Shown here: positions 9,508 to 33,255 of the stretch, piece by piece
Layout of the letters: each line of letters starts with the position of its first letter
Position numbering within the stretch: the first letter of the stretch is position 1
NCBI GenBank assembly: GCA_003135555.1
Contig: PLCF01000014.1
Location: 12,320-76,319 of the forward strand
Direction of reading: 5' to 3'
DNA: 64,000 nt
From: Vulcanimicrobiota bacterium
Lineage (GTDB): Bacteria; Vulcanimicrobiota; Vulcanimicrobiia; Vulcanimicrobiales; Vulcanimicrobiaceae
Translations under genes and position numbers: made by a program
Notes under the pieces: model-generated
Told to the model about the DNA's origin: nothing
Database searches by the model: none
Seen by the model: the letters and a program-made list of their open reading frames with translations, nothing else

Positions 9508-9570
9508 GTGCTTGTTCTCCAGGAAGGGGTTCGTCCAGATGAACGGCCCCGCCCCAAGGACGGATTGGCC

Positions 9571-9999: not shown

Positions 10000-10006
10000 C
10001 GCCGGG

Positions 10007-10420: not shown

Positions 10421-10459
10421 TGTAGGGGAGGAACGTGGCGCCGCAGGCACAGGGTTCCG

Positions 10460-11170
10460 GTGACTGAGATCCGGGACGCCTCGACGGTGATCGTCGGACG
10501 CGATACGAGCGAGGGCTTGCAGGTCTTCATGGTCCGGCGCAGCGCGCGGGCCGTCTTCTTGCCCGACCGTTACGTCTTCCCCGGCGGCCGCGTCGACGCC
10601 GCCGACCGCGACGAGGCTGGGCGGCTGCGCGGCTCGGCGGGCGACATCGAAGCCGCCTACGTCATGACCGCGGCACGCGAAACGTTCGAAGAGGTCGGGC
10701 TGCTCTTCGCCGACCGGGGGGTCGACGCGGAAGCGTTGGCCGCCGCGCGCCGCGCGATGGTCACCGGCGAGCTGTCCTTCGGCGGCGTTCTCGAACGCCT
10801 CGACGTTTCGGTGGACGCGTCGCAGCTGCGCTATTTCTCGCGCTGGGTGACGCCGCAGGCCGAGCTCGCCCGGCGCTTCGATACGCGGTTCTTCGTGGCG
10901 CGCGCTCCGCAGGATCAAGTCGCCGAAGCGGACGCGACCGAGGTGAGCGACGGCCGCTGGTTCGGCCCGGCGGAGGCGCTCGCGGCGCAGGCGCGGGGTG
11001 AGATCAACCTGATCTTCCCGACGATCAAACACCTCGAGCGTATCGCGCCGTTCGGCGACGTCGCCGCGCTGCTCGCGTTCGCGCGCACCAAAACGATCAC
11101 CACGGTTACGCCGGAGGTGCAGCCCGGACCCAGCTTCGTGATGATCCCCGAGCTGGAGAACGCATGGTAA
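10460..11170 (+). CDS. NUDIX hydrolase (NUDT19-like)
   Basis: VFPGGRVD...AARETFEEVG, RWVTP...RRFDTRFF. Confidence 0.9.
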   Translation: MTEIRDASTVIVGRDTSEGLQVFMVRRSARAVFLPDRYVFPGGRVDAADRDEAGRLRGSAGDIEAAYVMTAARETFEEVGLLFADRGVDAEALAAARRAMVTGELSFGGVLERLDVSVDASQLRYFSRWVTPQAELARRFDTRFFVARAPQDQVAEADATEVSDGRWFGPAEALAAQARGEINLIFPTIKHLERIAPFGDVAALLAFARTKTITTVTPEVQPGPSFVMIPELENAW

Positions 11171-12090: not shown

Positions 12091-12112
12091 GGGCCCTGTC
12101 GAGCCGCGCTGG

Positions 12113-13522
12113 TCAGATCAAGACGCCGATCGCGACGCCGATCGCATGCGCGGCGATCGGCACGGCAACATCCCGCGCGGCGTCGAGCAGCCACTTTCCG
12201 GCTTTCCCGAGCGCCGTCCAAATCTTCTGCTTGTCGTTCTGAGCGGCGCCCGCCTCGGCTTCGGAGAGCGCGGCGATCGCGGCGACCTTCTCCGGTCCGT
12301 CCGGCTTCGTCGCTACGTGCTCTTTCAGCGTGCGCAGCTCGGCCCCGAGCGCGGCCAAGTCCACGCCGTCCAAGTACGTCGGCTGAAAGTTGTTGACGCC
12401 CTGATTGATTGTACCTGGTCCAGTGTTGAGGCCGCCGATGTTCGCGTTTCTGAAGTCGTTCATGATGGTGACCGTAGCTTCTTTCTTTTGGATGATCGCG
12501 ATGGTCCGCGCATGCAGGGACGTTGTGGTCTGGTCGATTTGGCTCAAGATGCGATCGCGCTCGCCCGGGACGATGGCGTCGCTCGTGCCGAGCGCCATGT
12601 CGGCGAGCAAACGGTCTTGGCCGGCTAGCTTTCGCGCGGTCGACTCACTGCGCTTGACCCGGGAGTACGCTTCGGTGAGGTACTGCTCGAGCTTCTTGGT
12701 GTCGCCGTCGACCGGAATCCTCGTCGGCCTCAGATTGTCGAAGACGAAGCCGAGACATTCGTATTCCGCGTGAAGGCGTAGAAGGCTCAAGCGCAGGTGC
12801 CGCGCCGCGCCGCGATCGAAGCCCTCCCGCAGCGTCATCACCCAGGCCGGAATGGTGCGCTTTCGGAAGATCACCCTACGCAGCTCGATCGAGATGCCGA
12901 ACTTCTCACGGAGTTGCGGACCGGCACGCACCGGATAGGGAAGCTCGACGATCTCGTCTTCCAGATGCTCGACGAAGAGAATCGGCTGCCCGGATGAAAC
13001 GCTCCAGCCCGGGCTGGGATGCTGTTCGACGAGGTTCTTCTTCGTCGTCGCGCGGTAGTACAGCAAGCGCAGCGCTTCATCCGCGTCGGCCAGTCGCGTC
13101 GTCGTTCTCTTGCCGCGCGCGTCGTTGACGGACAGGGCGGTCGTGAGGAAGCTCTCGATCAGGGCCTGCGTCTCGGCGCCGTCGAGCTCTATCGACGGAT
13201 CGCCCGAGACCGCGATCCCGAGCTCGAAACGGGCGACCGCCAAACCGTCGAAGTAGAACCGGCGGAACACGCCGCGCTTGCGCAGCGCCTCGCCGTTGCG
13301 AAACGCGGCATCGCCGAAGTGAATGCCGCGATTTGCCGAGCAGAAGATGTCCTCGCCCCAGCCGATCAGCCCGCCGCGCGGGCGTTTGTCGACAACGCCG
13401 ACGAAGCGAACGAAGTGCTTTCCCGGCAGCGGCGACGGCCAATTCGGACTATCGAGGCGCGGAGTCTCTCCGGCCGCGAAGCCCCGCGCGTCCGCGAGCG
13501 GATACTGTATCGTTAACAGCAT
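12113..13522 (-). CDS. Hypothetical protein with an N/G/Q-rich segment and C-terminal amphipathic helical domain
   Basis: 469-aa ORF with its own promoter; C-terminus ...LGKAGKWLLDAARDVAVPIAAHAIG. Confidence 0.7.
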   Translation of the reverse strand: MLLTIQYPLADARGFAAGETPRLDSPNWPSPLPGKHFVRFVGVVDKRPRGGLIGWGEDIFCSANRGIHFGDAAFRNGEALRKRGVFRRFYFDGLAVARFELGIAVSGDPSIELDGAETQALIESFLTTALSVNDARGKRTTTRLADADEALRLLYYRATTKKNLVEQHPSPGWSVSSGQPILFVEHLEDEIVELPYPVRAGPQLREKFGISIELRRVIFRKRTIPAWVMTLREGFDRGAARHLRLSLLRLHAEYECLGFVFDNLRPTRIPVDGDTKKLEQYLTEAYSRVKRSESTARKLAGQDRLLADMALGTSDAIVPGERDRILSQIDQTTTSLHARTIAIIQKKEATVTIMNDFRNANIGGLNTGPGTINQGVNNFQPTYLDGVDLAALGAELRTLKEHVATKPDGPEKVAAIAALSEAEAGAAQNDKQKIWTALGKAGKWLLDAARDVAVPIAAHAIGVAIGVLI

Positions 13523-14814: not shown

Positions 14815-16125
14815 TTGGCTTTTCCGTCAGTGAGCTTGGGACCGCCCATCGCGAAACCGCTGTCCCGCCTGGAAGTCGAGATCGAGGCCAACCGCTGCCT
14901 CAACTGCTACGACGCGCCGTGCATCCGAGCGTGCCCGACCTCGATCGACGTACCGCGCTTCATCGGCCGCATCGCGACGGGAGATCTGCGCGGTAGCGCG
15001 CACACGATCATGGAGGCCAATCCGGTCGGGGCCAGCTGCGCGCGGGTGTGCCCGACCTCCCAGCTGTGCGAGGGCGCCTGCGTCTACAACGCGGACGCCA
15101 ATCCGATCCGGATCGGTGACTTGCAGCGCTACGCGACGGATTGGGCGATTCGGACCGGCGCGACGCTCTTCTCGGCGGGCGAACCGACAGGCAAGCGCGT
15201 CGCGGTCGTCGGTTCGGGTCCGGCCGGACTGGCCGCGGCGCGCGACTTGGCGATTCTCGGACACGCCGTCACGATCTTCGAGCGCGACGACGCGCCCGGC
15301 GGGCTGGACACCTACGGGATCGTGCCGTTCCGGCTGCCCGCGGAGATCGCGATCTGGGAAGCCGAGCAGGTGCGCGCGCTGGGCGTCGAGTTCCGTACCG
15401 GGGTAGCGGTCGGCGAAACGCTCAGCGCCGACGCCGTTCTAGCGGGCTACGATGCCGTCGTGTTGGCCGTGGGGATGGGGAACGTCCCGCGGCTGGGGAT
15501 CGAAGGCGAAGACGCCGCCGGCGTGTGGGACGCGCTCGATTTCATCCGCATCGCCAAGATGGGGGGCGACGTCGGAACGCTCGGCGACGCGGTAGCGATC
15601 ATCGGCGGCGGCAACACCGCGATCGACGCCGCGACCTGCTCGCGGCGGCTAGCCGTACCGTCGGTGACGATGTACTATCGCCGCGGCACCGAGCGTATGA
15701 CGGCCTACGATTTCGAGATCGAGTTCGCCCAAGTCGAAGGCGTCGAGTTCCGCACCTTCACCCTGCCCAAGCGCATCGTCGTGGAGAACGGCCGCGTCGC
15801 CGGGCTCGAGATCGTCTCGACCGCGCCCGACAACAGCGCGCGCCCGCTGCCCGGAACCGAACGTGTCATCGCGGCGCAAACGGTGATCTTGGCGATCGGC
15901 CAGTCGCGGCACGTCGCGCTGCTCGACGCGTTCGACGTCACCCACGACGTCAACGGGATCGCGATCGTCGACGAGGCGATGCGAACCAACAACCCGCGCG
16001 TCTATGCCGCCGGGGACTGCATGTTCAAACCCGGCGGCACCGACGCGATGGTGGTCGAGGCGGCGCAGCGCGGCAAGACCGCGGCGCAAAGCATCGATCT
16101 CTTCCTGCGTGCGGAGGTACGCTGA
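14815..16125 (+). CDS. preT: Dihydropyrimidine dehydrogenase subunit A (GltD-like)
   Basis: RCLNCYDAPCIRACP, CARVCP...CEGAC, GSGPAG, GGGNTAID; GGAGAGG RBS; directly upstream of preA. Confidence 0.9.
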   Translation: MAFPSVSLGPPIAKPLSRLEVEIEANRCLNCYDAPCIRACPTSIDVPRFIGRIATGDLRGSAHTIMEANPVGASCARVCPTSQLCEGACVYNADANPIRIGDLQRYATDWAIRTGATLFSAGEPTGKRVAVVGSGPAGLAAARDLAILGHAVTIFERDDAPGGLDTYGIVPFRLPAEIAIWEAEQVRALGVEFRTGVAVGETLSADAVLAGYDAVVLAVGMGNVPRLGIEGEDAAGVWDALDFIRIAKMGGDVGTLGDAVAIIGGGNTAIDAATCSRRLAVPSVTMYYRRGTERMTAYDFEIEFAQVEGVEFRTFTLPKRIVVENGRVAGLEIVSTAPDNSARPLPGTERVIAAQTVILAIGQSRHVALLDAFDVTHDVNGIAIVDEAMRTNNPRVYAAGDCMFKPGGTDAMVVEAAQRGKTAAQSIDLFLRAEVR

Positions 16126-17378
16126 TGGCCGATCTCTCGATCGATCTGGCGGGGATCAAGAGTCCCAACCCGTTCTGGCTGGCGTCGGCCCCGCCCACGA
16201 ACTCCGGCTATCAGGTCATGCGCGCCTTCGCGGCGGGCTGGGGCGGCGCCGTTTGGAAAACGTTGGCGCTCGAGCCGATCGTCAACGTCACCTCGCGCTT
16301 CGCGGGGTTCAACATCGGGCCCAACCGCATGGCCGGGATGAACAACATCGAGCTCATCACCGATCGGCCGCTCGAGGACAACCTGCGCGAGATCGCGGAG
16401 TGCAAAGCGGCCTACCCCGACCGCGCCATCGTGGTCTCGTTGATGACCGAGTGTACGCGCGAGAGCTGGCACGAGCTGGTGCGGCGCTGCGAGACGGTCC
16501 CGCTCGATGGGTTCGAGCTCAACTTCGGCTGCCCGCACGGGATGTCGGAGCGCGGGCAAGGCGCGGCGGTGGGGCAAGACCCCGAGCTCATCGAGATGGT
16601 CACGCGCTGGGTGAAGGAAGCCGCGCACGTCCCCGTCATCGTGAAGCTCACGCCCAACGTCACCGACGTGCGCTACCCCGCGCGCGCCGCTGCCAAAGGC
16701 GGCGCCGACGCGATCAGCCTGATCAACACGATCAACTCGCTCATCGGGGTCGATCTCGACACCTGGCTGCCCGTCCCGCACGTCGACGGCAAGTCGTCCC
16801 ACGGCGGCTACTGCGGCGCGGCCGTAAAACCGATCGCGCTCAACATGGTGGGAGCATGTGCGAAGGACTCCGCGGTCGGGATACCGATCTCGGGGATCGG
16901 CGGGGTGGGCGACTGGCGCGACGCCGTCGAGTTTATGCTGATGGGATCGACGAGCGTACAGGTCTGCACCGCGGTGATGCACCACGGCTTTCGCATCGTC
17001 GCCGACATGATCGACGGGCTCAACAACTACCTCGACGCGCGCGGGATTGCGTCGGTGAACGAGCTCGTCGGGAAGACCGTGCCGCGCTTCGTCGACTGGA
17101 ACGACCTCAACCTCGACTACAAGATCGTGGCGCGCATCGACCCCGAGACCTGCATCCGCTGCAACAAGTGCTACATCGCCTGCGAGGACGCGGCGCACCA
17201 GTGCATCGACCGGCCCGCCGATCCGCGCCTGGCGCCGGTCGTCGACGAAGAGCACTGCGTGGGCTGCAACCTGTGCGCCATGGTGTGCCCGGTCGTCGAC
17301 TGCATCGAGATGGTGCGCGTCGACGCCGGCGACACCGTCCACACCTGGAGAGAGAGGCTGACATCGGCACAATTGTAA
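16125..17378 (+). CDS. preA: Dihydropyrimidine dehydrogenase subunit B
   Basis: NPFWLASAPP, ELNFGCPHGM, KLTPN, two C-terminal 4Fe-4S motifs; TGATG overlap. Confidence 0.95.
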   Translation: MADLSIDLAGIKSPNPFWLASAPPTNSGYQVMRAFAAGWGGAVWKTLALEPIVNVTSRFAGFNIGPNRMAGMNNIELITDRPLEDNLREIAECKAAYPDRAIVVSLMTECTRESWHELVRRCETVPLDGFELNFGCPHGMSERGQGAAVGQDPELIEMVTRWVKEAAHVPVIVKLTPNVTDVRYPARAAAKGGADAISLINTINSLIGVDLDTWLPVPHVDGKSSHGGYCGAAVKPIALNMVGACAKDSAVGIPISGIGGVGDWRDAVEFMLMGSTSVQVCTAVMHHGFRIVADMIDGLNNYLDARGIASVNELVGKTVPRFVDWNDLNLDYKIVARIDPETCIRCNKCYIACEDAAHQCIDRPADPRLAPVVDEEHCVGCNLCAMVCPVVDCIEMVRVDAGDTVHTWRERLTSAQL

Positions 17379-18754
17379 GAGGCGGCACGGTCGTTACCGC
17401 GACCGACATCTTCCCCGCCGACGTGCTCGTCGAGGACGGCACGATCACCGCGATCGCGCGCTCGGTCCCCGGCGTCGGCCACGAGACCGTCGACGCGTCG
17501 GGCGCGCTCGTGTTCCCGGGCTTCATCGATCCGCACACGCACCTGGACATGCCGTTCGGGGGGACGACGACGGTCGACGACTTCGCCAGCGGTACCGTCG
17601 CGGCCGCGCTCGGCGGCACGACGACGATCGTCGACTTCGCGCTGCACACCAAGGGCGACTCGCTGGCCAACGCGCTCAAGACCTGGCACGCCAAGGCCGC
17701 CGGGAAGGCGGTGATCGACTACGCGTTCCACCTCACCATCGCCGACGGCCGGCCCGAGACGATCGCCGAGATCCCCGAGATGATCGCGCGTGAGGGCGTC
17801 AACTCGTTCAAGGTGTTCATGGCCTACAAGCACGTGCTACAAGTCGACGACGAGACGATCTTCAAGGTGCTCAAGGCTGCGGCCAACTACGGCGGGCTGG
17901 TGCAGGTACACGCCGAGAACGGCGACGTCATCGAGGTCACGGTCAAGGACGCCCTTGCGGCGGGCCATACCGCGCCGAAATACCACGGTCTCACGCGACC
18001 CGTCGAGCTCGAAGCCGAGGCCACGTCGCGCGCGATCCGGCTCGCCGAGGTCGCCGGCGCGCCACTGTACGTCGTCCACGTCTCGAGCGCGATGGCGGCC
18101 GACGCGATCAGCGACGGCCGCAAGCGCGGCTTGCACATCTACGGCGAGACCTGCCCGCAGTATCTCGTCTGTGACGCGACCGACTACGATCGGCCGGACT
18201 TCGCCGGCGCAAACTACGTGATGTCGCCGCCGCTGCGTGAGAAGTGGAACCAGGCGGTGCTGCTCAAGAAGCTCAAGAACGGCGAGCTGCACGCCTTCGG
18301 CTCCGACCACTGCTCGTTCAACAACTGCGGTCAGAAGGAGCTGGGGAAGGACGACTTCTCGAAGATCCCCAACGGCGCGCCGACGATCGAGGACCGCGTC
18401 GCGATCCTGTTCGAGCACGGTGTGGTCAAGGGTGTGATCGGTCTGAACCAATTCGTCGCGCTCGCCTCGACGAACCCGGCGAAGCTGTTCGGCCTGTTCC
18501 CGCGCAAGGGCACGATCGCGGTGGGCAGCGACGCCGACATCGTGGTGTGGGATCCCGCCGTCGAGCGCACGATCTCGGCGCAGACGCACCACATGAAGGC
18601 CGACAACAACATCTTCGAGGGAATGTCGGTGCACGGTCGCCCGCGCTACGTCTTCTCGCGCGGCCGCAAGGTTGCCGACGACGGCGCCTTCGTCGGCTCG
18701 CCCGGCGCCGGCATCCACCAGAAGTCGGCGCCATTCCGCCCCGTTCAATTGTAG
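17363..18754 (+). CDS. hydA: Dihydropyrimidinase; start appears to be ATC
   Basis: PGFIDPHTH, FKVFMAY, VHAENG, GETCPQYL, SDH; N-terminus IGTIVRGGTVV follows a GAGAGG RBS. Confidence 0.93.
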   Translation: MGTIVRGGTVVTATDIFPADVLVEDGTITAIARSVPGVGHETVDASGALVFPGFIDPHTHLDMPFGGTTTVDDFASGTVAAALGGTTTIVDFALHTKGDSLANALKTWHAKAAGKAVIDYAFHLTIADGRPETIAEIPEMIAREGVNSFKVFMAYKHVLQVDDETIFKVLKAAANYGGLVQVHAENGDVIEVTVKDALAAGHTAPKYHGLTRPVELEAEATSRAIRLAEVAGAPLYVVHVSSAMAADAISDGRKRGLHIYGETCPQYLVCDATDYDRPDFAGANYVMSPPLREKWNQAVLLKKLKNGELHAFGSDHCSFNNCGQKELGKDDFSKIPNGAPTIEDRVAILFEHGVVKGVIGLNQFVALASTNPAKLFGLFPRKGTIAVGSDADIVVWDPAVERTISAQTHHMKADNNIFEGMSVHGRPRYVFSRGRKVADDGAFVGSPGAGIHQKSAPFRPVQL

Positions 18755-18770
18755 GTCAGGAGTTGTCACG

Positions 18771-19661
18771 ATGAGCGATGCCGACATCATCAGGATCGGC
18801 TTGGTCCAGGCGCACCACGACACCGACGGCCCCGAGCCCGTCGAGGTGCACAAGCGCGAGGCGATCAAGAAGCACGAGCGCATGATCCGCGAGGCGGCGC
18901 AGCGCGGCGCGCAGATCGTGTGCCTGCAGGAGCTCTTCTACGGGCCGTACTTCTGCACCGAACAGGACCCGAAGTGGTACGAGGCGACCGAACCGGTCCC
19001 CGACGGCCCGACGACGCGCCTGATGCAAGACTTGGCGCGCGAGTTGGGGATCGCGCTCGTCGTTCCGCTCTACGAGCGCACCTTCAGCGGCGTGTACTAC
19101 AACACCGCAGTCATCATCGACGCCGACGGCGCCGTGCTGGGGATCTACCGCAAGCACCATCTTCCGCAGGTCGCGGCGGGCCCGCCGGGATGCGGCTTCT
19201 GGGAGAAGTACTACTTCAAACCCGGCAACGCCGGATACCCGACCTTTCAGACGAAGTTCGCGCGCATCGGCGCGTACATCTGTTACGACCGCCATTTCCC
19301 CGAAGGCGCGCGGCTGCTCGGCCTGGCGGGCGCGGAGATCGTCTTCAACCCGTCGGCGACCGTCGCGGGCCTGTCGGAATATCTCTGGAAGCTCGAACAG
19401 CCGGCGCATGCCGTCGCCAACGGATACTACGTCGGCGCCATCAACCGCGTGGGCTTCGAAACGCCCTGGAACATGGGCGAATTCTACGGGCAATCGTACC
19501 TCGTCGATCCGCGCGGGCAGTTCGTGGCCATGGGTTCGCGTGACAAGGACGAGGTCGTGATCGGCGACATGGACCGCCGCGTGATCGAAGAGGTCCGCAA
19601 CACCTGGCAGTTCTACCGCGACCGCCGCCCCGAGACGTACGGCGCGATGGTCGAAGTCTAG
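18771..19661 (+). CDS. Nitrilase-family beta-ureidopropionase
   Basis: Glu-Lys-Cys triad motifs CLQELF, YRKHHLP, ICYDRHFPE; AGGAG RBS; operon context. Confidence 0.88.
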   Translation: MSDADIIRIGLVQAHHDTDGPEPVEVHKREAIKKHERMIREAAQRGAQIVCLQELFYGPYFCTEQDPKWYEATEPVPDGPTTRLMQDLARELGIALVVPLYERTFSGVYYNTAVIIDADGAVLGIYRKHHLPQVAAGPPGCGFWEKYYFKPGNAGYPTFQTKFARIGAYICYDRHFPEGARLLGLAGAEIVFNPSATVAGLSEYLWKLEQPAHAVANGYYVGAINRVGFETPWNMGEFYGQSYLVDPRGQFVAMGSRDKDEVVIGDMDRRVIEEVRNTWQFYRDRRPETYGAMVEV

Positions 19662-19674
19662 GCCGCACCAACCC

Positions 19675-21171
19675 ATGAAAACGCAGGTCGAGCGCGAGGG
19701 TATCGTCACCCTCACCGACGACGCCGCGGCCGTCGCGGCGCGCAATGCCGACTTCTGGAACGACGACCTGCGGCCGTGCACCACGGCCGAGCACGACTGG
19801 CGCGCCTCGCGGTTTGCGAGCTTGTGGATCGGGATGTGCCTGTGCATCCCGACCTGGTCGCTCGCCGGCGGCATGATCGATGCGGGGATGAGCTGGTGGG
19901 AAGCCGTGCTGACGCTGCTCAGCGGAAGCCTCGTCGTGCTGATCCCGATCCTGTTGGTCGCGCACGCCGGAACGCGTTACGGCATTCCCTATCCGGTCTT
20001 CGCCCGGCTGTGGTTCGGGACGCGCGGCGCGCATCTGCCGGCCCTGGCGCGCGCCGTCATCGGCGCCGGCTGGTTCGGGATCAACGCCTGGTTCGGCGGG
20101 CTCGCGCTCGACGCGATCGCCGGGCGCATCGCGCCGGCGTGGAGCTCTTTCGGTGGACACATCGCGGTCGCGTTCGCCGCGTTTTGGCTGCTCAACGTCG
20201 CCATCGCGATGCGCGGCCCGCAAGCGATCGGGCGGCTCGCCGCGTTCGCCGCGCCGACGCTGGGCATCGCCGCGCTGGCGCTCTTCGCTTGGGGGCTGAG
20301 CGCGGCGGGAGGCGTCGGTCCGATGCTCGCGGCCCCGCCCAAGCTCCAGGGCGTCGCGTTCTGGATCGCGTTCTTCCCCTTGATGATCGGGGTGGTTGCG
20401 TTTTGGGCGACGCTGGCTCTGAACATCCCCGACTTCTCGCGCTACGCCGTCTCGCAGCGCGCCCAGCTGCGCGGCCAACTCGTGATGCCCATCGTCATGG
20501 CGCTGTTCGGGTTCGTCGCCATCGCGGTGACGTCGGCAACCGTCGTGGTGTTCGGCAAGGCGCTGTGGAACCCGGTGGAGCTGCTGGTGCGGTTCCCCAC
20601 CGTCGTGGTGCTGATCGGCGGCGTACTGGTGATCCTGTCGTCGATCACGATCAACGTCGGCGCCAACGTCATGGCGCCGGCCCGCGCGTTCGAGAACCTC
20701 TGGCCTAACAAGGTCACCTTCGCGACCGGGGCGATCGTGACCGGCGTGCTCGCGTTGGCGATGCAGCCCTGGTTCGTCCTGGAACGCTACGGCAACTACG
20801 TCTTCCTGTGGCTCGGCACGTACGGCACATTGCTGGGCCCGTTCGACGGCATCGCGATCGCCGACTACTGGCTGGTGCGTAAGCTGCGCTTGGACCTCGT
20901 GGGCCTGTACTCACCCGGCGCGCGCTACGACTATGCGCGCGGCTGGAACGTGCGCGCGATCGTAGCCCTGGTCGTCGGCTGGCTCCCGCCGCTGGTCGGG
21001 TTGTGGTATGCGCCGCTGCACTTCTTGTGGTCCGGCGGCTGGCTCTTCAGCATCGTCGTCGCAGGATTCGCCTACGCTTGGTTCATGCGCGCCGACAAGT
21101 CGCGCATCAGCGCCGACGAATATGCGGCGATCACCGAAGTCGACGATCTCGCGCTATCTGCCCCCACCTGA
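19675..21171 (+). CDS. NCS1 nucleobase:cation symporter
   Basis: NDDLRP, GIPYPV, WFGIN, WATLALNIPDFSRY; many TM helices. Confidence 0.92.
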   Translation: MKTQVEREGIVTLTDDAAAVAARNADFWNDDLRPCTTAEHDWRASRFASLWIGMCLCIPTWSLAGGMIDAGMSWWEAVLTLLSGSLVVLIPILLVAHAGTRYGIPYPVFARLWFGTRGAHLPALARAVIGAGWFGINAWFGGLALDAIAGRIAPAWSSFGGHIAVAFAAFWLLNVAIAMRGPQAIGRLAAFAAPTLGIAALALFAWGLSAAGGVGPMLAAPPKLQGVAFWIAFFPLMIGVVAFWATLALNIPDFSRYAVSQRAQLRGQLVMPIVMALFGFVAIAVTSATVVVFGKALWNPVELLVRFPTVVVLIGGVLVILSSITINVGANVMAPARAFENLWPNKVTFATGAIVTGVLALAMQPWFVLERYGNYVFLWLGTYGTLLGPFDGIAIADYWLVRKLRLDLVGLYSPGARYDYARGWNVRAIVALVVGWLPPLVGLWYAPLHFLWSGGWLFSIVVAGFAYAWFMRADKSRISADEYAAITEVDDLALSAPT

Positions 21172-21522
21172 TCAGGAACGCGTCTCCGGAACGTTGTCGA
21201 GCTGCGCGGCGAGCCGCCGCGGTGCCCGCAGGTGCCATGCCTCGGTGAGCAGTTCGCGCAGCTCGTCGGCGCCGACGTGGGCGAGCCGCACGAGCACCCA
21301 GGGATAGTTTTCGTAGTGCGGCGTGGTGAAGAACTTCTGGGGCTCGGCGAGCATGAGCGCCTCGCGTTCGGGGCCGACCCGTAATACCAGCGTCTCGCCG
21401 TCCTCGCGCAGCCGCGCGATCAGCCGGCCGCGCACCTTGAGCGCGGGCGTACCGTACGACGTGCTCTCCTCGATCTCGGGCAGTGCCGCCGCCAGCCCGA
21501 GAATCTCGCTCCAGGTCAACAC
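21172..21522 (-). CDS. MmcQ/YjbR family protein
   Basis: LPEIEESTSYGTPALKVRG, FFTTPHY..YPWVLVRL, ELLTEAW. Confidence 0.85.
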   Translation of the reverse strand: MLTWSEILGLAAALPEIEESTSYGTPALKVRGRLIARLREDGETLVLRVGPEREALMLAEPQKFFTTPHYENYPWVLVRLAHVGADELRELLTEAWHLRAPRRLAAQLDNVPETRS

Positions 21523-21542
21523 AGCGAGCGCGCGCTTAACGC

Positions 21543-22898
21543 TCAGCCCTTCGTCGCCGCGTGCGCCTCGGACAGGTCTCCGACGGCGCCGTCGATCGTT
21601 GCGACGACCTCGTCGATCTGGTCGTCGGTGATGATGAGCGGCGGCGCAATGTGCATCACGTTGTAGCGCCCGAAGCCGTAGGCGCCGCGCTTCTTCAAGC
21701 CCGCGAACAACGACGGCATCGGTCCCATCGACGTCCCTTGCCACGGCACGAGCGGCGCCCGCGTCTTGCGGTCGCTCACGAACTCCAGCGCGAAGAACGC
21801 GCCGGCGCCGCGCACCTCGCCGACGATCTCGTGCGCATCACGGACGCGTTCGAGCCCGGCCCGCAGCCGACTCTCGATCGCCTTGGCGCGGGCGAACAGG
21901 TCGCCGTCGCGGTAGGCTTGCAGCGTGGCGACGCCGGTGGCCATCGCGAGCGGATGTCCCGAGTACGTGTGCCCCGCCGGCAACGGTTTGTCGTCGAAGC
22001 CGCGCGCGTAGCGTTCGCGGATCAACACGCCGCCCAGCGGAACGTATCCCGACGTGACGCCCTTGGCGATGGTCATCAGGTCCGGCACGACACCGAAGCG
22101 TTCGCCGCCGAAGGCCGCGCCGACGCGGCCGAATCCGGTCATCACCTCGTCGAAGACGAGCAGGATCCCGTGCGCGTCGCACAGCGCGCGCAACCCGGCC
22201 AGATAGCCCGGCGGGAAGACGATCACGCCGTTGGAACCGATGACGGGCTCGATCAGAATCGCCGCGACCGCATTGGGGTTCTCGGCCGCGATGGTTTCGG
22301 CGACGTGCTGCAGAGCGCGCCGCGTCTCCTCGGCCGGATCGTCGGTGAAGAACGGGCTGCGGTACGGAAACGGCGTCCAGAAGTGCACCACGCCCGGCAT
22401 CACGTTCGTGGGCTCGTTGTACCAGCGGCGGTTCTCGCCGGTCAGCGTCGCCGAGCCGGCCCCCGACCCGTGGAACGAGCGATACGCCGCGAGCACTTTG
22501 GCCCGGCCGGTGACGGCGCGCGCGAACTTGATCGCGTCCTCGTTCGCCGCCGCGCCGGAGGTCGTGAAAAACGCCCGCCCGCCCTCGGCGCCCCACGGCG
22601 CGAGACCGACGAGCGCCTCGGCCAGCTCGGCGCGCGTGTCGTTGAACCAGTTGGGAGGGCTGAAGCACAGGCGGTCGACCTGGGCGTGCATCGCGGCGCG
22701 GACGCCGGGATGGCCGTGTCCCAAGTTCACCGCGATCAGCCCGGAGGTGAGGTCGGCGTAGCGCTGCCCGTCGTCGTCGTAGAGGTAGATGCCCTCGCCG
22801 CGCACGATCATCGGCGGCTGCAGGTTCCCCTGGGCCAGCCACGGGGTGAGCACGTAGCGCGCGTGCTTGGTCTTGAGCGCTTCGCCGGCGACGATCAT
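21543..22898 (-). CDS. Class III aminotransferase (beta-alanine/taurine:pyruvate type)
   Basis: SFHG, IEPVIG, FDEVMTGFGR, PDLMTIAKG, HTYSGHP; adjacent to the beta-alanine-producing operon. Confidence 0.9.
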   Translation of the reverse strand: MIVAGEALKTKHARYVLTPWLAQGNLQPPMIVRGEGIYLYDDDGQRYADLTSGLIAVNLGHGHPGVRAAMHAQVDRLCFSPPNWFNDTRAELAEALVGLAPWGAEGGRAFFTTSGAAANEDAIKFARAVTGRAKVLAAYRSFHGSGAGSATLTGENRRWYNEPTNVMPGVVHFWTPFPYRSPFFTDDPAEETRRALQHVAETIAAENPNAVAAILIEPVIGSNGVIVFPPGYLAGLRALCDAHGILLVFDEVMTGFGRVGAAFGGERFGVVPDLMTIAKGVTSGYVPLGGVLIRERYARGFDDKPLPAGHTYSGHPLAMATGVATLQAYRDGDLFARAKAIESRLRAGLERVRDAHEIVGEVRGAGAFFALEFVSDRKTRAPLVPWQGTSMGPMPSLFAGLKKRGAYGFGRYNVMHIAPPLIITDDQIDEVVATIDGAVGDLSEAHAATKG

Positions 22899-26063: not shown

Positions 26064-26300
26064 ATGGCCCGCTTCGATCCCGCCCGCATCCTCCGCGCTT
26101 CGCATATCCGCTACGGCAAGATCCGCATCAGCGGCGTCCCGGCGATTCTGCTCGGCGTTTCGGCGATCGTCGCGGTGGCTGGGACGACGCGCGCGCTGCG
26201 CGCCGCCGCCCCGTCGCTGGCCGACGTCTTCCGCGAGGCGACCAAGCTGGTCGACGCGGTCCGCACCGATCGCGGCGACCAGCACCGGCTCAACGCCTGA
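26064..26300 (+). CDS. Small hypothetical membrane protein
   Basis: MARFDPARILRASH...GVPAILLGVSAIVAVAG; fills the gap between divergent and convergent neighbours. Confidence 0.55.
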   Translation: MARFDPARILRASHIRYGKIRISGVPAILLGVSAIVAVAGTTRALRAAAPSLADVFREATKLVDAVRTDRGDQHRLNA

Positions 26301-26309: not shown

Positions 26310-28589
26310 TCACCAGGGCGCGGTCAGCCGCAACACGATCCGCCGCGGCGCATTCCATTGCGTCGTGTTGAACCCGTTGTTGACCTTGATCAGATAGCGG
26401 TTGTCGAACAGGTTCTCGAGCGAGAGCGCGTAGCCCAGCCCGTGCGAGGCCCGATCGGCGGCACGCCCCAGCGACGCGTCGACGACCCAGTGTGCGGGCA
26501 GCCGTCCTTGACCGTTCTCGAACTGCGCCGGGAAGCCCGTGCCGTACTCCGCCTGCAGCGTCGCGAAGGTGCGCAGATCTCCGCCGAAATGGCGCGTGTA
26601 GAACGCGTTGCCGGTCCAGCGGGCGTCGTGATCCTCAGGCTGCAACGTGATGTCGCTCGCGGCGTCGGGCGCGAACAGGAACGTACTGCCCGAGACACCG
26701 CCCGCTTCGGCACGCTGAAACGTCAGCGAGAGCCCGGCGTCGGCGCGCGCCGACGTGCCGTCCAGGCGCAACTCGATCCCGCGATCGCGGCCGACCGCGT
26801 TGTTGAAGACCGCGAAGAGCGGCGTGTTGGCGAGTTGCGTCGTGTCGAGCACGTTGACCGCGGTGCGGTCGAACGCGTTGAGGTAGCCGCGCAGCCCCGG
26901 TTTGAACGTGTGCGCGAGGCCAACCTCGACATAGGTGTCGCGCTCGGGCTTGAGGTCGTATACCGGCGCGGCCGTCGACGAGGTCTGCGTGACGACCGCG
27001 TCGCGGCGCACGTCCTCCAGCCCCGGCGCGGAGTAGAGCCGGCCGTAGTACGCGTGCAGCACCGTGCCGCGCGCGATCTCGTCGTTGATCTCGATCCGCG
27101 GGCTGAGCTGCGAGCCGCCGACGTACCCCGTGCTGTGGTCGTAGCGCAATCCGGCATTGATCGCGAGCCGCGGCGTCGCGCTCCACTTGTCCTCGAGGTA
27201 GAGGCCGGTCTGCGCCCCGCGCTGCGCGGTCGAGTCGGTGAAATCGGGCGAGCCGGTGATGCGGATCAGCGAGTCCGAGCGAAAGTTTTCGACTTGCAGA
27301 TCGAGCCCGGCTTTGAGCGCGTGCCGGCCGCCGGCGTGAAACACCGACGCGCGCAGGCCGGCATACGTCGCCGCGCGGTCTTCGCGTACGCCGTTCTGCG
27401 GCGTAGCCGAACCGTCAGGGTTGACGACGTTGGCCAGCACGTCGTTGGCCAGATCTCCCGCATACACGACGCGGTTCGAGCGCACCCATGGCACGACGCG
27501 CACGTAGCCGTTGCCGTCCTTCGAGGTGTGCGTGTACGAAAGGCTGGCGAAGCGGTCGTACTCGCGCTGCACGTCGTCGGTCGCGGAGACCGCAACGAAC
27601 GGCGACTGCGGCGAGAACGTCGTATTGATCGGGATCTGGAACGACGCGTACCCGCTGGAGAAGTCGGCGGCGAGCAAGTCGCGCTCGCCCAGCGGCAGCG
27701 CGATGCGCAGGAACCCGTCGGCGTTCGACGATGCGTCGTGCTGCGCGTCCTTCGAGGGCGCATCGAGCCCGCGGCCGGTGCGCGCCGTGTTGAGCGCGAG
27801 CGAGAACTGCGCCCGCCCCGCGTTGAAGTGCTCGACCAGCCGCGCGTCCGACGAACCGAGCTCGCCGGCGCCGAGCGTCAGCGCGCCGGCACCCGAGCCG
27901 CCCTGCTCGGTTCCGCCGCTGATGACGTTGACGACCGCGCCCTGGCGCGAGCCGCCGAACTCGGCCGGAAATGCGCCGGTGAATATTTCGACCGCCTGCG
28001 CGTTGCGCGGGTCGATCAGTTGCGCGAAGTTCGAGCTGGTCGATTGGGGGAGCGGCGCGCCGTCGAGCTCGTAGCTCAGGCCGTGGAACCCATGCGCGAC
28101 CGGCTCGTCGTACGAGAAGCGCACGACGCCGGGGACCTGCTCGACGATCGCGTCGAGGCGGTCGTTGCGCGGCAGCGCGGCCAAGCGGCGAGCACCGTAG
28201 GCGTTCTCGGAGACCGGCGTTCCGCGCACGCCCGTTGCGGTGCCGGCGGTGCGGCCGATCACCTTCGTCGGGGTTAGCGTGACGTCGACGATCGCGTCGG
28301 TCGCGACGTCGATGCTCGCCAGCGCGACGCCGTCGGCGGTTGTCGCCTGCAACGTGTAGTGGCCGAACGGGACACGGGCGAAGACGAAGCGCCCGTCGGC
28401 GCCGCTCGTTGCGGTCAAAGCGGTTCGGTCGCCGGTCAGCGTGACGACGACGCCGCCGAGGGGACGATGGTCGGCCCGGGCGAGCGTCCCGCGGACGACG
28501 CCGACGACGTCGGCGCGCGCCGGGGCCGCCGAAACGACGGCGACGGATACGCAAGCGAGCGCGGCAACGGCCGCGCGTAGGGGATGCAT
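26310..28589 (-). CDS. TonB-dependent receptor with N-terminal carboxypeptidase-regulatory-like domain
   Basis: GGAG RBS and ATG at 28589, signal peptide, plug motif GAFPAEFG...GAVVN, NAGLRYD, SPR, ENLFD, C-terminal W. Confidence 0.9.
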   Translation of the reverse strand: MHPLRAAVAALACVSVAVVSAAPARADVVGVVRGTLARADHRPLGGVVVTLTGDRTALTATSGADGRFVFARVPFGHYTLQATTADGVALASIDVATDAIVDVTLTPTKVIGRTAGTATGVRGTPVSENAYGARRLAALPRNDRLDAIVEQVPGVVRFSYDEPVAHGFHGLSYELDGAPLPQSTSSNFAQLIDPRNAQAVEIFTGAFPAEFGGSRQGAVVNVISGGTEQGGSGAGALTLGAGELGSSDARLVEHFNAGRAQFSLALNTARTGRGLDAPSKDAQHDASSNADGFLRIALPLGERDLLAADFSSGYASFQIPINTTFSPQSPFVAVSATDDVQREYDRFASLSYTHTSKDGNGYVRVVPWVRSNRVVYAGDLANDVLANVVNPDGSATPQNGVREDRAATYAGLRASVFHAGGRHALKAGLDLQVENFRSDSLIRITGSPDFTDSTAQRGAQTGLYLEDKWSATPRLAINAGLRYDHSTGYVGGSQLSPRIEINDEIARGTVLHAYYGRLYSAPGLEDVRRDAVVTQTSSTAAPVYDLKPERDTYVEVGLAHTFKPGLRGYLNAFDRTAVNVLDTTQLANTPLFAVFNNAVGRDRGIELRLDGTSARADAGLSLTFQRAEAGGVSGSTFLFAPDAASDITLQPEDHDARWTGNAFYTRHFGGDLRTFATLQAEYGTGFPAQFENGQGRLPAHWVVDASLGRAADRASHGLGYALSLENLFDNRYLIKVNNGFNTTQWNAPRRIVLRLTAPW

Positions 28590-28623
28590 GAAACAGCTCC
28601 GGTGGATTCGAGGGCGCTGGGGG

Positions 28624-29291
28624 CTAGCGCACGACCGGAGGGGCCCGTGAGGGCGGCGGCGCGCGAGCCGGGCGCCGGCCGGAACGAAGAGCGGATCGGC
28701 GGTGCCGGCCCAGACCGCGCCGCCGCCGGGCGCCAGCAGGCGCAGGACCGCCGCCAGGACGATCACGAGCCGCTCGGCGAGGGCGAGCACCGCGCGGGCT
28801 GCCCCGGCGAGCGCCAACGCGGTCAGGAGGGCGCCGGCGCCGAGGGCAGCGAGCGCGACCAGCGCCGGAACGCCGGCGAGCCCGCCGTCGAGCGCGAGGA
28901 TCGCGGCCAGCGGGGCGGCACCGGCCAGCCCGACGGCCGCGGCGAGCGGCGCGACACGCTGGGCCGCGACCAGCCGCGCGAGCGCCGTCAAAAGCGCCGG
29001 ATTGCGCGAGCGGGCCCGCACCAGCCCGAGCACGGCAAGCAAGCAAAGGCCGGCCGCAAGCCCGGCTGCGTAGACGAGGATCGGGCAAAGCCCTTCCGCG
29101 TCGTCGGGATCGGGCGTGGGCAGGGCCAGGCCGGAGATTCCGCCGGCGAGCGCCGCGTGGGCGTGGCCCAGGACGTGGTGGTGGCAGACGTGCGCTCCGG
29201 CCGCCGCGAGCACGGCGACGCCCAGCGCGGCCGTTCCGGCGACCGCAGCCAGCAGCCCGAGCCCGAGGGACCGCGTCCCTTTCGTCTGCAT
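28624..29291 (-). CDS. His/Cys-containing membrane leader protein with C-terminal RAPP motif; apparent 1-nt frameshift at 28651-28653
   Basis: HVCHHHVLGHAH, CPIL and several TM helices; ...ARRR continues as SRAPPVVR-stop only in the adjacent frame. Confidence 0.65.
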
Positions 29292-29300
29292 CGTCACCAA

Positions 29301-29327
29301 TACGTTCATCGGGTCCCGTTTGGATCA
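29301..29327 (-). promoter_or_regulatory. Putative ECF sigma promoter
   Basis: Minus strand TGATCC (29322-29327), 17-nt spacer, CGTA (29301-29304), 9 nt before the ATG at 29291. Confidence 0.45.
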
Positions 29328-29378
29328 TCTCCAGGGAGGGCGGGTCCCGGCCGCCCGCGGGTCGTAGACGGGGCGCTC

Positions 29379-29621
29379 GTGATCGATGAAGCGATAGCCG
29401 GGCTGCTGCGCCAGACGATGCCCGATGCCGTGGTGCAGGTTCGCGACATGACCGGCACCATGGACCATCTCGAGGTGTTCGTACGTTCGCGAGCGTTCGC
29501 GGGCGTCTCGCTGCTCGACCGGCACCGCATGGTCGAGAAAGCACTGGCCCCCGCTCGCGCCGACGGACGCATCCATGCGCTCCAGATCCACACCGCTATC
29601 CCCGAGGACACCGATGGCTGA
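29379..29621 (+). CDS. bolA: BolA family protein
   Basis: DMTGTMDH, FAGVSLLDRHRMV, IHALQI; overlaps grxD. Confidence 0.88.
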   Translation: MIDEAIAGLLRQTMPDAVVQVRDMTGTMDHLEVFVRSRAFAGVSLLDRHRMVEKALAPARADGRIHALQIHTAIPEDTDG

Positions 29622-29964
29622 CCTGCAAGACGAGATCAAGCGCGAGATCGACACCAACACGATACTCGTCTACGGCAAAGGGACAAAGGACGCGCCGCGC
29701 TGCGGCTTCACGCTGGAGACGATCCAGTTCTTCAACGCGTTCGGGTACCCGTTCGAAGTCGTCGACGTGCTCGAGAACATGCCCAAGCGTGAAGCGCTGG
29801 CACAACTCACCGATTGGCCGACGCTGCCCAAGGTGTTCATCAAAGGCCAGTTCTACGGCGACACCGACGTGCTCGCGCCGATGGCGCGCAGCGGCGAGTT
29901 GAGCCGGGTGCTCGAGACCGCGTTCGCCGGGACCGACGTCGAGCCGACGATCCGCCTGAGCTGA
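29614..29964 (+). CDS. grxD: Monothiol glutaredoxin (Grx4 type)
   Basis: KGTKDAPRCGFT, WPTLPKVFI.G.F.G. Confidence 0.88.
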   Translation: MADLQDEIKREIDTNTILVYGKGTKDAPRCGFTLETIQFFNAFGYPFEVVDVLENMPKREALAQLTDWPTLPKVFIKGQFYGDTDVLAPMARSGELSRVLETAFAGTDVEPTIRLS

Positions 29965-30138: not shown

Positions 30139-33100
30139 GTGCGCACTCTCCTTCGTGCAAGCGCGGCCTTCGCTTTTGCGTACCTATCGTTCGTCGGACC
30201 CGCAAGCGCGGCGACGGAGCCGGTAGTCGCGCAAGCCTCGGCTACTCAAGGCACGCTGAACGGCCGCGTCACCGATCCTCGCGGGAATCCCGTCGCCGGC
30301 GCAGCCGTGTCGGTCACGGGACCCGGTCCTACGTCCACCGCGACGACGGACAACGACGGACGCTTCACGTTCAATCTCCCGCCGGGTGTTTACACCGTCA
30401 CCGTCAACCGCGGCGGATTCGAGACGGCCCAGAACGACATCTCGATCGTGGCCGGCACGCGCATCGCGTTGGCCGTCCCGCTGCAGGAGACGAACCTCTC
30501 GAACCTGCGCGTCATCGGACGCGTGAGCACCAACTCACAGCGCGCGCAGCTCAACACATCGGAATCGTCAGTGTCGACGCTTCCGCCGCTCGAGATCGCG
30601 CTGCGGCAGAACAATACCCTTACCGATACCGTCGCAACGCTGCCGGGTGTGGTCGTGCAGCGTACGTTCTCCGCGACGCCGAACACGAACTTCGTCGTGC
30701 GCGGCGCGGGCGCGCAAACCCGCGTCACCATCGACGGCCACCCGGTGAGCTCCGGGATCTTCGGCCAGTGGAACACCAACTACGCCACCTCGGGGATCTT
30801 CAACGACGTCGAAGTCGTGAAGGGCACCGGCCTCAACGGCGCGCTCGCCGGTGAGTCCGCGGTCGGCACCGTGAACCTGCGGACGCGGGACTTCACCACC
30901 AAGAATTCGTACGGGCTGCAGATCGGCGCCGACAGCTATACCGGCGGCATCTACAACGCGTTCGCCGACGTGAACTTCTTGAAAGGCAAGGCGAGCCTCA
31001 TCGTCGCCAAGTCGTTCATCGGGTTCAACGGTCCGTGGAACCTGGCGTTCAACAACCGCTCCGGCAACAACAACCTGTCGTCGCAGCCGGTCGCGCTCAA
31101 CCAGCCGCAGAGCTTCATCGGTCTCGATCAGTGGCAGGGAGACTTCTCCAACCGCTACGGCCTCCAGGCCGAGCTCGCCAAGCTGCGTTACCGGTTCAGC
31201 GAGACCACCTCGGTCACGCTGGAATACCTGGGGATGCAGGGCCAGTATCAGCCGCAAGGCGGAGCCTACGGCACGTTCCAGGGCAACATGACGATGCAGG
31301 CATGCCAAACCGGCGCCGCGTTCCAGCCCACGCTCGCGACGTGCACTTCGCAGTCCACGTACACCGCGCCGTACACGTTCAACCAAATCGGCAACACCGT
31401 GCCCGCGTACCAGTGGTTCCCCAACTCGTTCATCCAGAACAACGAACCGCAGTTCGCGGCCGAGTTCCGCACGGCGATCAAGAACGACACGATCCTGTTC
31501 CGGCCGTACACGCACCTCATCAACCGCTACATCAGCGGCGTGCGCGAGAACGACTACCCGGGCAACGGCGGCGGCTGGTTTGCCGTCACCAACGTGGCGA
31601 ACTGCCAAGTGAAGTTCATCACTCCGGGAACGGCGGGTGGACCGGCGACCGGCGCGGCCGGCCCGTGCTTCCCGTCCACGACGGGCCCCGCCGGCGCTTC
31701 GTACGTCGGCGCCGACCCGACCGGTCGCCAGTTCCTGACCACGCCCAGCGCCCCGGTGTGCAGCGCGGCACCGCCGTTCACGTGCTTCACGACGACGACG
31801 GGGATCCAAAACGACGGGACGTTCGGGTACGGAACGCCGTTCAGCCAGCCCGAGGTCGACCGGCTCAACGGCTACACGCTGAGCTGGATCCATCCCGCGG
31901 GCAACAACCTCTTCAACTTCAGCGTCGACTACCGTAAGGACTTCGCCCAGTCGCAGAGCAGCGATCAGAGCCAGGCTGCGGCCGGCTGTCAGTTCGTGAT
32001 CGGCTCGGTCACGGGCGCCGCCGTCTCGAACTTCCAGCCGGGATGCTCGACGGCCCAGTTCCCGCTCGCGGGATCTCCCTACACCCGCTACAACCTCTTA
32101 CCGCGCTCGGCGATCGGTACGCCGCCGACCGTTTCGCAGTACACCGACTTTGCGCTCACCGGAACGTTCCATCTCGGTGACAAGCTGACCCTAGCGATCG
32201 GGAACTACCTCGAGCTCTACAAGCTCAACGCGCAGATCGAGAACCCGACCGTTCTGGCCCAATACGCCGCTCTGGGCAACGCTCAAGCCTCCCCGGTGGC
32301 GCTGGTGACCCGGACGCAAAGCTACACCCACTACGACCCGCACATCGGGCTGGAGTATCGCGTCAACCGCGACCTGAGCCTGCGGGCCAACGGCGGGTCG
32401 TCGATCACCCAACCGTGGCCGGGGATCGTCTCCGGGTTCGGTTCGATCACCCTGCCCAACGCGGCGAACGGCGGCAACTACACCAACACCATCCCGAACT
32501 TCGCTCTGACGCCCGAGACGACGGTCGCGTACGACCTCGGGTTCGACCAACGGCTGCACGACACCGGGATCCTGTCGTTCGACCTCTACGACATCACCAT
32601 CCACGACGTGTTCCTCTCCAACACGACGAACCTCGGAACGATCGCGAACACCTGCGGTCCGGGCAACGGTGGACCGTTCCCCAACGCACTGTGCTTGCAG
32701 TCGAACAACATCAACGGGCCGATCCAGCGCACCTACGGAGCCGAGCTCGCGGTCACCAAGAATCCCATCAACGGCTGGGGCTACTACCTCTCCGCGACCC
32801 TGGCCCGCACCTACTACGATCAGCTTCCGCTGAGCATCTACTTCGCCAACACCACGAACAACAACGGAAACTTCAACGTCAGCGGGGCGCAGATCTTCGG
32901 CAACCCGTTCTTCAAGTCGTACGCTCAGCTGCTGTACGCGGACCCGCGCGGGACCGTGTTCGAGCTGGGAGCCGACTACGAAGGTCCCGACAACTCGACG
33001 TTCGGCCCGCCGTTCGTCCTGTGGGATGCGGCTGCACGCATCCCGGTCGCGAAGCACCTCAACCTGCAGATCTCGGCCCAGAACCTCTTCAACCTCAACA

Positions 33101-33255
33101 CGGGCACGGCGCTCGGACGCAGCCTGGCCAATCAAGGCAACATCGAGCCTACGCTGTACCTCAGCGGCGGGCAGCTGTTGCCGAGCGGCGGGACGACGAA
33201 CATCAACGCGCTGCCGCCGCGTACCATCCGCATGTCGCTCAACTTCGCGATGTAG
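30139..33255 (+). CDS. Large TonB-dependent receptor with Cys-pair loop insertions
   Basis: Signal peptide, carboxypeptidase-like N-domain, VEVVKG...GTVNLRT plug, PET...DLG, QNLFN, PR... Confidence 0.88.
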   Translation: MRTLLRASAAFAFAYLSFVGPASAATEPVVAQASATQGTLNGRVTDPRGNPVAGAAVSVTGPGPTSTATTDNDGRFTFNLPPGVYTVTVNRGGFETAQNDISIVAGTRIALAVPLQETNLSNLRVIGRVSTNSQRAQLNTSESSVSTLPPLEIALRQNNTLTDTVATLPGVVVQRTFSATPNTNFVVRGAGAQTRVTIDGHPVSSGIFGQWNTNYATSGIFNDVEVVKGTGLNGALAGESAVGTVNLRTRDFTTKNSYGLQIGADSYTGGIYNAFADVNFLKGKASLIVAKSFIGFNGPWNLAFNNRSGNNNLSSQPVALNQPQSFIGLDQWQGDFSNRYGLQAELAKLRYRFSETTSVTLEYLGMQGQYQPQGGAYGTFQGNMTMQACQTGAAFQPTLATCTSQSTYTAPYTFNQIGNTVPAYQWFPNSFIQNNEPQFAAEFRTAIKNDTILFRPYTHLINRYISGVRENDYPGNGGGWFAVTNVANCQVKFITPGTAGGPATGAAGPCFPSTTGPAGASYVGADPTGRQFLTTPSAPVCSAAPPFTCFTTTTGIQNDGTFGYGTPFSQPEVDRLNGYTLSWIHPAGNNLFNFSVDYRKDFAQSQSSDQSQAAAGCQFVIGSVTGAAVSNFQPGCSTAQFPLAGSPYTRYNLLPRSAIGTPPTVSQYTDFALTGTFHLGDKLTLAIGNYLELYKLNAQIENPTVLAQYAALGNAQASPVALVTRTQSYTHYDPHIGLEYRVNRDLSLRANGGSSITQPWPGIVSGFGSITLPNAANGGNYTNTIPNFALTPETTVAYDLGFDQRLHDTGILSFDLYDITIHDVFLSNTTNLGTIANTCGPGNGGPFPNALCLQSNNINGPIQRTYGAELAVTKNPINGWGYYLSATLARTYYDQLPLSIYFANTTNNNGNFNVSGAQIFGNPFFKSYAQLLYADPRGTVFELGADYEGPDNSTFGPPFVLWDAAARIPVAKHLNLQISAQNLFNLNTGTALGRSLANQGNIEPTLYLSGGQLLPSGGTTNINALPPRTIRMSLNFAM

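Follow-up and report, generated by a model that had tools for sequence, protein, structure and literature searches.

Leader proteins that stall their own ribosome near the C-terminus provide the background against which we examine a membrane leader and the TonB-dependent receptor gene that follows it in a 64,000-nucleotide stretch of a Vulcanimicrobiota bacterium (GenBank assembly GCA_003135555.1, contig PLCF01000014.1, positions 12,320 to 76,319; hereafter the window). The nearest described system by layout is CruR (Bp2923), a DUF2946 protein of Bordetella pertussis encoded before the copper TonB transporter BfrG/CrtA; it is 145 residues long and has one export signal, its RAPP stands three residues from the stop with a CxxC 45 residues further upstream, and it acts via Rho (PMC9426467). 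CutF, encoded before the multicopper oxidase CutO in Rhodobacter capsulatus, senses periplasmic metal as a nascent chain and has a cleavable signal, a CxxxC and a polyproline end; copper induces its stall, which opens a stem-loop shielding the Shine-Dalgarno sequence (SD), and the detoxifying enzyme is made (PMC9973294; 10.1101/2025.02.05.636593). SecM, upstream of secA, and ApdA/ApdP likewise stall near the C-terminus, the SecM stall opening an SD-hiding stem-loop, but these proteins monitor protein export (PMC10987492, PMC7897499); for ApcA, ApdA and ApdP, no SD-hiding hairpin is reported to be predicted (PMC7897499). According to PMC12992588, RAPP leaders of TonB receptors occur widely and are almost all of the signal-sequence rather than the transmembrane type, and Streptomyces has four-helix RAPP leaders with predicted metal sites. 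The latter include the S. lividans RAPP/RGPP arrest peptides SLIV_18480 and SLIV_27375, from a monoderm host and with other downstream genes, which we compare by description. The same work reports in vitro arrest for CruR and for each of the seven Streptomyces RAPP/RGPP proteins tested, and finds an Ala-to-Pro change (RPPP) to be partly permissive for arrest (PMC12992588).

The Vulcanimicrobiota leader resembles CruR in being the first gene of its unit, in possessing a Cys-based putative metal site and a downstream TonB receptor, and in placing RAPP a few residues before the C-terminus. It differs in having four helices (two in short forms), two cysteines approximately 20-45 residues apart, in a loop that precedes RAPP by 145 residues, and a hairpin predicted to hide the SD. 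In contrast to CutF, its anti-SD lies within the arrest codons, and the response would have the opposite sign, since the target here is an importer. Judged from sequence, it displays the features of the RAPP class, i.e. a small membrane protein with RxPP near its end, encoded upstream of a co-oriented gene. The CruR-like logic that an earlier reading of the window from its letters alone (the sequence-only reading) had put forward is supported. We propose, at a probability of about 0.7, that the leader stalls at RAPP and so opens a hairpin hiding the receptor SD, that a metal (probably copper) at a two-Cys loop releases the stall and turns the receptor off, and that in the window strain translation reads past the motif into the receptor. 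The elements concerned are listed below, with their positions in the window.

28624..29291, minus: membrane leader gene; intact allele of 222 residues with four hydrophobic helices, an amphipathic extension and RRRPSRAPPVVR before the stop (hydropathy, alignments A1 and A3); frame broken at 28651-28653
29082..29192, minus: loop joining helices 1 and 2, with invariant Cys36 at one edge and invariant Cys69-Pro70 at the other; predicted to be a periplasmic sensor, the topology inferred from flanking charges
28651..28653, minus: C3 run, site of a 1-nucleotide loss; C4 in close strains
28636..28647, minus: RAPP codons CGG GCC CCT CCG, out of frame in the window strain
28635..28640, minus: anti-SD CTCCGG inside the Pro-Pro codons; predicted pairing with the SD, probability 0.95
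28590..28623, minus: intergenic region of 34 nucleotides holding the hairpin interior and the SD; 35 nucleotides in X5/X7, with a 1-nucleotide difference at 28617/28618
28597..28602, minus: receptor SD CCGGAG, read from the sequence
26310..28589, minus: TonB-dependent receptor, 759 residues, with PF13620 (CarboxypepD_reg), PF07715 (plug) and PF00593 (barrel); signal peptide end PARA/D read by eye

At the junction the minus strand reads CGC CGC CGC CC TCA CGG GCC CCT CCG GTC GTG CGC TAG, with the stop codon at 28624-28626 and the receptor ATG at 28587-28589, 34 nucleotides apart; on re-reading, this sequence and the positions of its C-run, RAPP and ATG agree with the sequence-only reading. As written, the leader frame is RRRPHGPLRSCASPQRPRIHRSCF and runs on into the receptor, so that a single open reading frame results, whose first 213 residues match no Pfam family and whose last 759 are the TonB-dependent receptor. 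Its reported length of 999 residues holds for a start at 29309, whereas the start quoted with it, 29291, gives 993. Position 29291 is the true leader start, since the intact allele P0095 begins MQTKG and since one base is missing at 29299/29300 in runs X5, X6 and X7. That the frame joins two units is confirmed by the existence of a separate leader (P0095) and a separate receptor (P0094).

The receptor was recovered in 57 of 61 relatives and in 155 of 201 genomes of the family (seven unpublished genomes count in these two tallies only), and conservation was surveyed over 114 orthologous receptor loci in Vulcanimicrobiota, the window and 113 others. An intact hydrophobic leader ending in RAPP or RPPP before the stop precedes the receptor at 105 of these 113, and RxPP before the stop is seen at 111; natural RPPP endings occur at 43 loci. 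At none of the 113 is the leader fused to the receptor; a true conserved fusion is rejected, and the homologues are not the fusions without RAPP that would have spoken against a leader. The remaining eight comprise four frame-broken loci (L046, L050, L108, L129), one cut by a contig end (L004), one chimera (L029), one without upstream DNA (L006) and one without the motif (L103). In the chimera (G031; 366 to 45 nucleotides upstream of the receptor) a leader end, VPAGVLVARRRPSRAPP, is joined to an unrelated permease-like stretch, through either rearrangement or misassembly, with the arrest end kept. A profile search of 1.84 billion representatives yielded 78 matches, of which 72 end in RAPP and 2 in RGPP, the longest having 322 residues; the search among longer proteins returned no longer homologue of the leader, which is weak evidence.

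With a single leader protein we recovered 1 of 60 relatives, a limit of sensitivity, the leaders being found via the receptor, and a related-locus search with one leader protein returned 2 loci. An alignment search of 251 genomes of the phylum found 16, a figure that gives no range as known members such as G020 were missed. The exact 27-nucleotide stretch after the C-run had no match in metagenome contigs, and a gapped version of the pattern found 3 loci that lack blastn similarity to the window and are attributable to chance. In the Atlas the leader falls in unnamed clusters only and the receptor among generic TonB receptors. A structural model of the L005 leader (predicted local distance difference test, pLDDT, 68.7) had no Foldseek match at E up to 0.001, and the model of P0051 (pLDDT 77.3) gave a best Z of 7.2 to unrelated helical proteins; both models are uninformative.

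Examination of the alignments revealed that the two Cys and the Pro are invariant (28/28 in A1, 41/41 in A3), and that RAPP lies near the C-terminus in all 27 intact leaders of A1. CxH occurs in 22 of the 28 leaders, and HVCHH in just 2, confined to the closest relatives. The conserved C-terminal RAPP, the CP and the polytopic leader before a TonB receptor, all expected by the sequence-only reading, hold across the family loci, while the HxCHH/HVCHHH site and the description of the class as His-rich do not: beyond the two Cys and CP nothing of the site is invariant, and the loop between the two Cys, His-rich in the window, is Met-rich in most relatives and sometimes contains His. At the 35 intact loci with a head of the window type the order is helix 1, invariant Cys, variable loop, invariant Cys-Pro, helices 2-4, an amphipathic stretch and RAPP. 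The Cys pair is 33 apart in the window and lies approximately 145 residues upstream of RAPP in long forms. Short forms of approximately 145 residues lack exactly two helices, which would fit an N-in, loop-out, C-in topology; a fifth hydrophobic stretch spans residues 161-194. Membership in DUF2946 is rejected, as there is no Pfam match and no CxxC at the conserved spacing: the Pfam model recovered none of 28 Cys-type leaders (E up to 1) and none of 26 His-type leaders (E up to 0.1).

At most other loci the head is of a His type, in which helix 1 ends with an invariant His and in which Gln and Glu are conserved; its alignment with the Cys type is limited to the C-terminal half (hhalign 93%). 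Loci of both types are intermingled on the receptor tree; this pattern, seen without a formal test, suggests exchange of heads. Genome G000 itself encodes a second, intact His-type leader (contig C56, locus L065:2414-2977, minus strand), which ends in PNRPPPPLAT before a paralogous 785-residue TonB receptor, with MauE and redoxin genes at a distance of about 5 kb. Further variants were seen. L099 and L100 (G228, G209) have a third head type with two helices, DLCAD...GCHCW and the end RRRASRAPP, with a copCD-like gene downstream in L099. L086:4569-5201 (G259) has a fourth, with HEELG, a Met-rich loop, no Cys pair and a GRAPP end, in the usual bolA-grx locus. In G042, L093 codes for three RPPP-ending membrane leaders within 9 kb (5567-6199, 9377-11698, 11764-12378), whose downstream genes are for a phosphoesterase and two TonB receptors.

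Within the Pro-Pro codons CCT CCG G lies the sequence CTCCGG, which is exactly complementary to the receptor CCGGAG. We analyzed this complementarity on 104 loci, 23 having been dropped for want of a motif or recognisable start, and on the 101 left after removal of 3 whose start was wrong or whose spacer exceeded 140 nucleotides. A few paralogue loci and the window are among those analyzed, and the control consisted of 76 ordinary gene pairs from G000. The SD is predicted to pair with the motif region at a mean probability of 0.75, exceeding 0.5 at 79 of 101 loci, as against 0.26 upon synonymous recoding, 0.33 with swapped leaders and 0.10 in ordinary pairs (above 0.5 in 6 of 76). CCT encodes the first Pro of PP at 52 of 104 loci versus 3.1% of Pro codons in G000, and the base flanking the CTCC/GGAG core pairs at 28 of 52 loci versus 18.4 in shuffles, with 0 of 5000 reaching that value. 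Placing a simulated ribosome footprint at the motif lowers the predicted cost of opening the start by a median of 3.4 kcal/mol (control 0.01), the gain exceeding 2 kcal/mol at 66 of 101 loci versus 8 of 76 controls. When 28560-28680 of the window is folded whole (z = -0.75), the SD pairing is present in the centroid and absent from the minimum-energy structure. These predictions point to an SD-hiding hairpin that overlaps the footprint of a stalled ribosome at most loci, and the pairing of RxPP with the SD points to control of the SecM/CutF type, in which stalling would open the receptor start. The longer spacers of L005, L007, L008, L012 and L156 share a stretch such as TTCACGCGCTAGACGCATCGTAGACG within the hairpin.

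To place the frameshift we compared assembled contigs of four of ten listed runs (X1, X5, X6 and X7, with X6 lacking coverage of the C-run site); X5 and X7 may come from one campaign and X1 is possibly the source sample of the window. At this contig level, the C3-versus-C4 comparison proposed by the sequence-only reading finds C3 in X1, whose 1227-nucleotide contig (depth 15.5) has 0 differences and 0 gaps over 28489-29500, and C4 in X5 and X7. The latter two, each with an 897-nucleotide contig bearing 29 substitutions relative to the window, carry one G more behind 28650, which makes C4 on the coding strand, and one T more behind 28617. In the protein collection, the separate 222-residue leader P0095, which ends in RRRPSRAPPVVR and shows 9 differences from the window leader in the first 213 residues, is on 5 contigs, and the separate 759-residue receptor P0094, with 3 differences, is on 6. 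Hence the match is not due to chance and one extra C does give a separate leader ending in RAPP, as had been predicted, and the separate proteins together with C4 in X5/X7 indicate that the wild type has two genes and that the window carries a derived allele. The recurrence of C3 in the independent assembly of run X1 indicates a real strain-level mutation. The identical 999-residue fusion is on 3 contigs, which may be one sample, including one of 153,428 bases (101,566 for C8). Both 1-nucleotide differences from X5/X7 are required for the open in-frame read; the second of them, at 28617, and the predicted SD-hiding hairpin had escaped the sequence-only reading. Loss of a single base would yield such a fusion at 15 of 101 intact loci and would not do so with the 35-nucleotide spacer of X5/X7; chance is enough to account for the fusion being in frame, though a compensating second change may have occurred.

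Gene neighborhoods were counted over wide-flank loci, 12 of the Cys/Met type and 60 others. A cusF gene lies between leader and receptor at 5 of the 12 and at 1 of the 60, the cusF genes retain the H and MxM residues, and L084 has a divergent copCD-ycnI. A Met-rich loop with thiols is the usual chemistry of Cu(I). Copper is our best guess for the Cys/Met head, at roughly even odds. His-type loci are often near Fur, Nramp or znuB. In the window the leader is flanked by the following genes:

29379..29964, plus: divergent bolA and monothiol glutaredoxin genes, a neighbor in genus g1 only and not shown to belong to the switch

No promoter-like sites were found at the locus, and terminator-like sites number 2 against 2.4 expected.

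In intact strains, the ribosome would stall at RAPP near the leader end and open the hairpin, exposing the receptor SD so that the receptor is made when the metal is low. Metal at the two-Cys loop would release the stall through the pulling force of membrane insertion or through metal-dependent folding, upon which the hairpin would close and the receptor be shut off. Because the lost C lies 5' of the hairpin, the SD would stay hidden in the window strain while the stall is gone; with the hairpin untouched and no stall possible, regulation is likely lost. The receptor's own start would then be mostly closed, and an unregulated 993-residue fusion would be made, which, should the leader have four helices and not five, could be cleaved at the buried signal-peptide site. 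The window fusion is most likely a strain-level loss of regulation.

Several observations weigh against this proposal. RAPP alone is insufficient for arrest (PMC12992588). The window locus gains only 0.8 kcal/mol from the footprint (7.3 to 6.5) and its SD accessibility rises only from 0.01 to 0.11, while L156 and L084 gain 0.5 and 0.1 kcal/mol. Beyond the base next to the core the excess of pairing fades (21 versus 14.3, 19 versus 14.4, 11 versus 11.7), and the shuffles overstate the excess, the loci being kin. As to the metal, the five cusF cases represent two genera only; in genus g1 no locus has cusF, bolA-grx being divergent instead; and G000, an 84% complete genome, has no match to the cusF, copCD and ycnI queries. 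Furthermore, znuA/znuB are nearby at 4 of the 12 Cys/Met-type loci, and in the same receptor lineage His-type leaders also occur close to genes for Fur, ZnuB and Nramp.

These observations bear on what the switch senses and how it acts. The same stall-and-hairpin switch might respond to zinc, nickel, cobalt or iron, or a disulfide might report periplasmic oxidation or membrane-insertion capacity. This is a real, if doubtful, possibility that draws on znuAB beside L085, L097, L098 and L142, on Fur and Nramp genes, present at 9 and 12, respectively, of the 60 wide loci lacking a Cys/Met leader, on MauE/redoxin genes near many loci and the divergent bolA-grx of genus g1, and on a Streptomyces four-helix RAPP leader with a Cys pair that precedes a thioredoxin gene (PMC12992588). 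The copper-like chemistry of the Met-rich, thiol-bearing loop and the presence of cusF, with H and MxM, inside the operon mostly with the Cys/Met leader type argue against it. Alternatively, the leader might stall and yet control the receptor as CruR does, by Rho-dependent termination in the intergenic region, the hairpin being incidental; the small footprint effect at the window and the C-rich nature of Pro codons would agree with this. However, we regard it as unlikely given the CCT bias, the loss of pairing on recoding or leader swap and the compensating bases beside the core, and given an intergenic region of 34 nucleotides here versus 162 for cruR-bfrG (PMC9426467).

The fused allele could in turn be a selected bypass, in which two 1-nucleotide losses make the receptor constantly as a fusion freed by signal peptidase. 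The need for both differences (28650 and 28617), the small share of loci that one loss would fuse, the apparent dominance of the allele in X1, the occurrence of the fusion on 3 contigs and the intact receptor frame are compatible with this. Yet selection is improbable: 15% is not rare, the 28617 change may have come first or second and may have gone in either direction, the fifth hydrophobic stretch could misplace the cleavage site, there is no other fused locus among the 113 (nor, as weak evidence, a longer homologue), and the 3 contigs may be one sample. Among the three causes that the sequence-only reading had offered for the lost base, a strain-level mutation fits. An assembly error is very unlikely: four other loci are frame-broken, some in genomes with other breaks, and the comparison, with X1 perhaps the source sample, tests the assembly rather than the library, but the X1 contig is identical without gaps and the fusion is also on the 153,428-base contig. 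Phase-variable tracts are far longer than 3-4 C. A programmed slippage or phase-variation switch between fused and regulated forms, for which the position within CGC repeats followed by a short C-run might speak, is rejected as exceedingly improbable: triplet slippage keeps the frame, the R-P-S codons have 12 spellings across 21 loci, and each compared run has one allele only, though contigs drop rare variants. We also consider a broader version of the stall-and-hairpin proposal, which is rather unlikely as a whole. In it Vulcanimicrobiota would govern a single TonB-receptor lineage by a modular switch: one 12-base word, serving as arrest codons and anti-SD arm, would both stall the ribosome and lock the next gene; four-helix heads (two-Cys/Met for copper, His/Glu for zinc-like metals) would be interchangeable, natural RPPP included; and the peat strain would have bypassed the switch by two single-base losses, giving a constitutive, self-processing fusion.

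All 106 aligned receptor sequences share His169 and His654, and no Met is conserved; CrtA, too, is described as using a His, without conserved Cys/Met (PMC12914433). No NCBIfam model reached its cut-off for the receptor, and its only sequence match in PDB is the colicin I receptor (E 0.003). A small unannotated open reading frame (26100-26300, plus strand), convergent with the receptor and of no Pfam/NCBIfam family of note, keeps its position in genus g1 (L086, L087, L088, L090). Past bolA-grx, another TonB-dependent receptor of 1038 residues (30139-33255, plus strand) has a receptor counterpart in the same place in several g1 genomes. Elsewhere in the window, 16004-22898 holds a pyrimidine-breakdown-like cluster whose genes we take to be those for dihydropyrimidine dehydrogenase, dihydropyrimidinase, ureidopropionase, an NCS1 transporter and an aminotransferase; the 916-residue frame at 16004 resembles dihydropyrimidinase with an out-of-frame extension.

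We found no description of this leader family or of arrest codons acting as anti-SD in the literature searched, which left out most subscription papers. The searched supplementary files of PMC12992588 do not contain the names of the phylum (file 10 lay outside the search, and tables may use accession numbers), so that these leaders may be within that survey. Whereas no SD-hiding hairpin is predicted for ApcA, ApdA or ApdP (PMC7897499), here about 100 natural loci have arrest codons whose predicted pairing with the downstream SD is accompanied by a codon bias and by some compensating changes. They add a polytopic leader class for TonB receptors, with natural RPPP endings, and the two sensor chemistries on one receptor lineage would be useful for understanding how a nascent chain tells metals apart. 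What is valuable in the finding is the leader family, with the anti-SD embedded in its codons, and the frameshift serves mainly as a natural arrest-less control.

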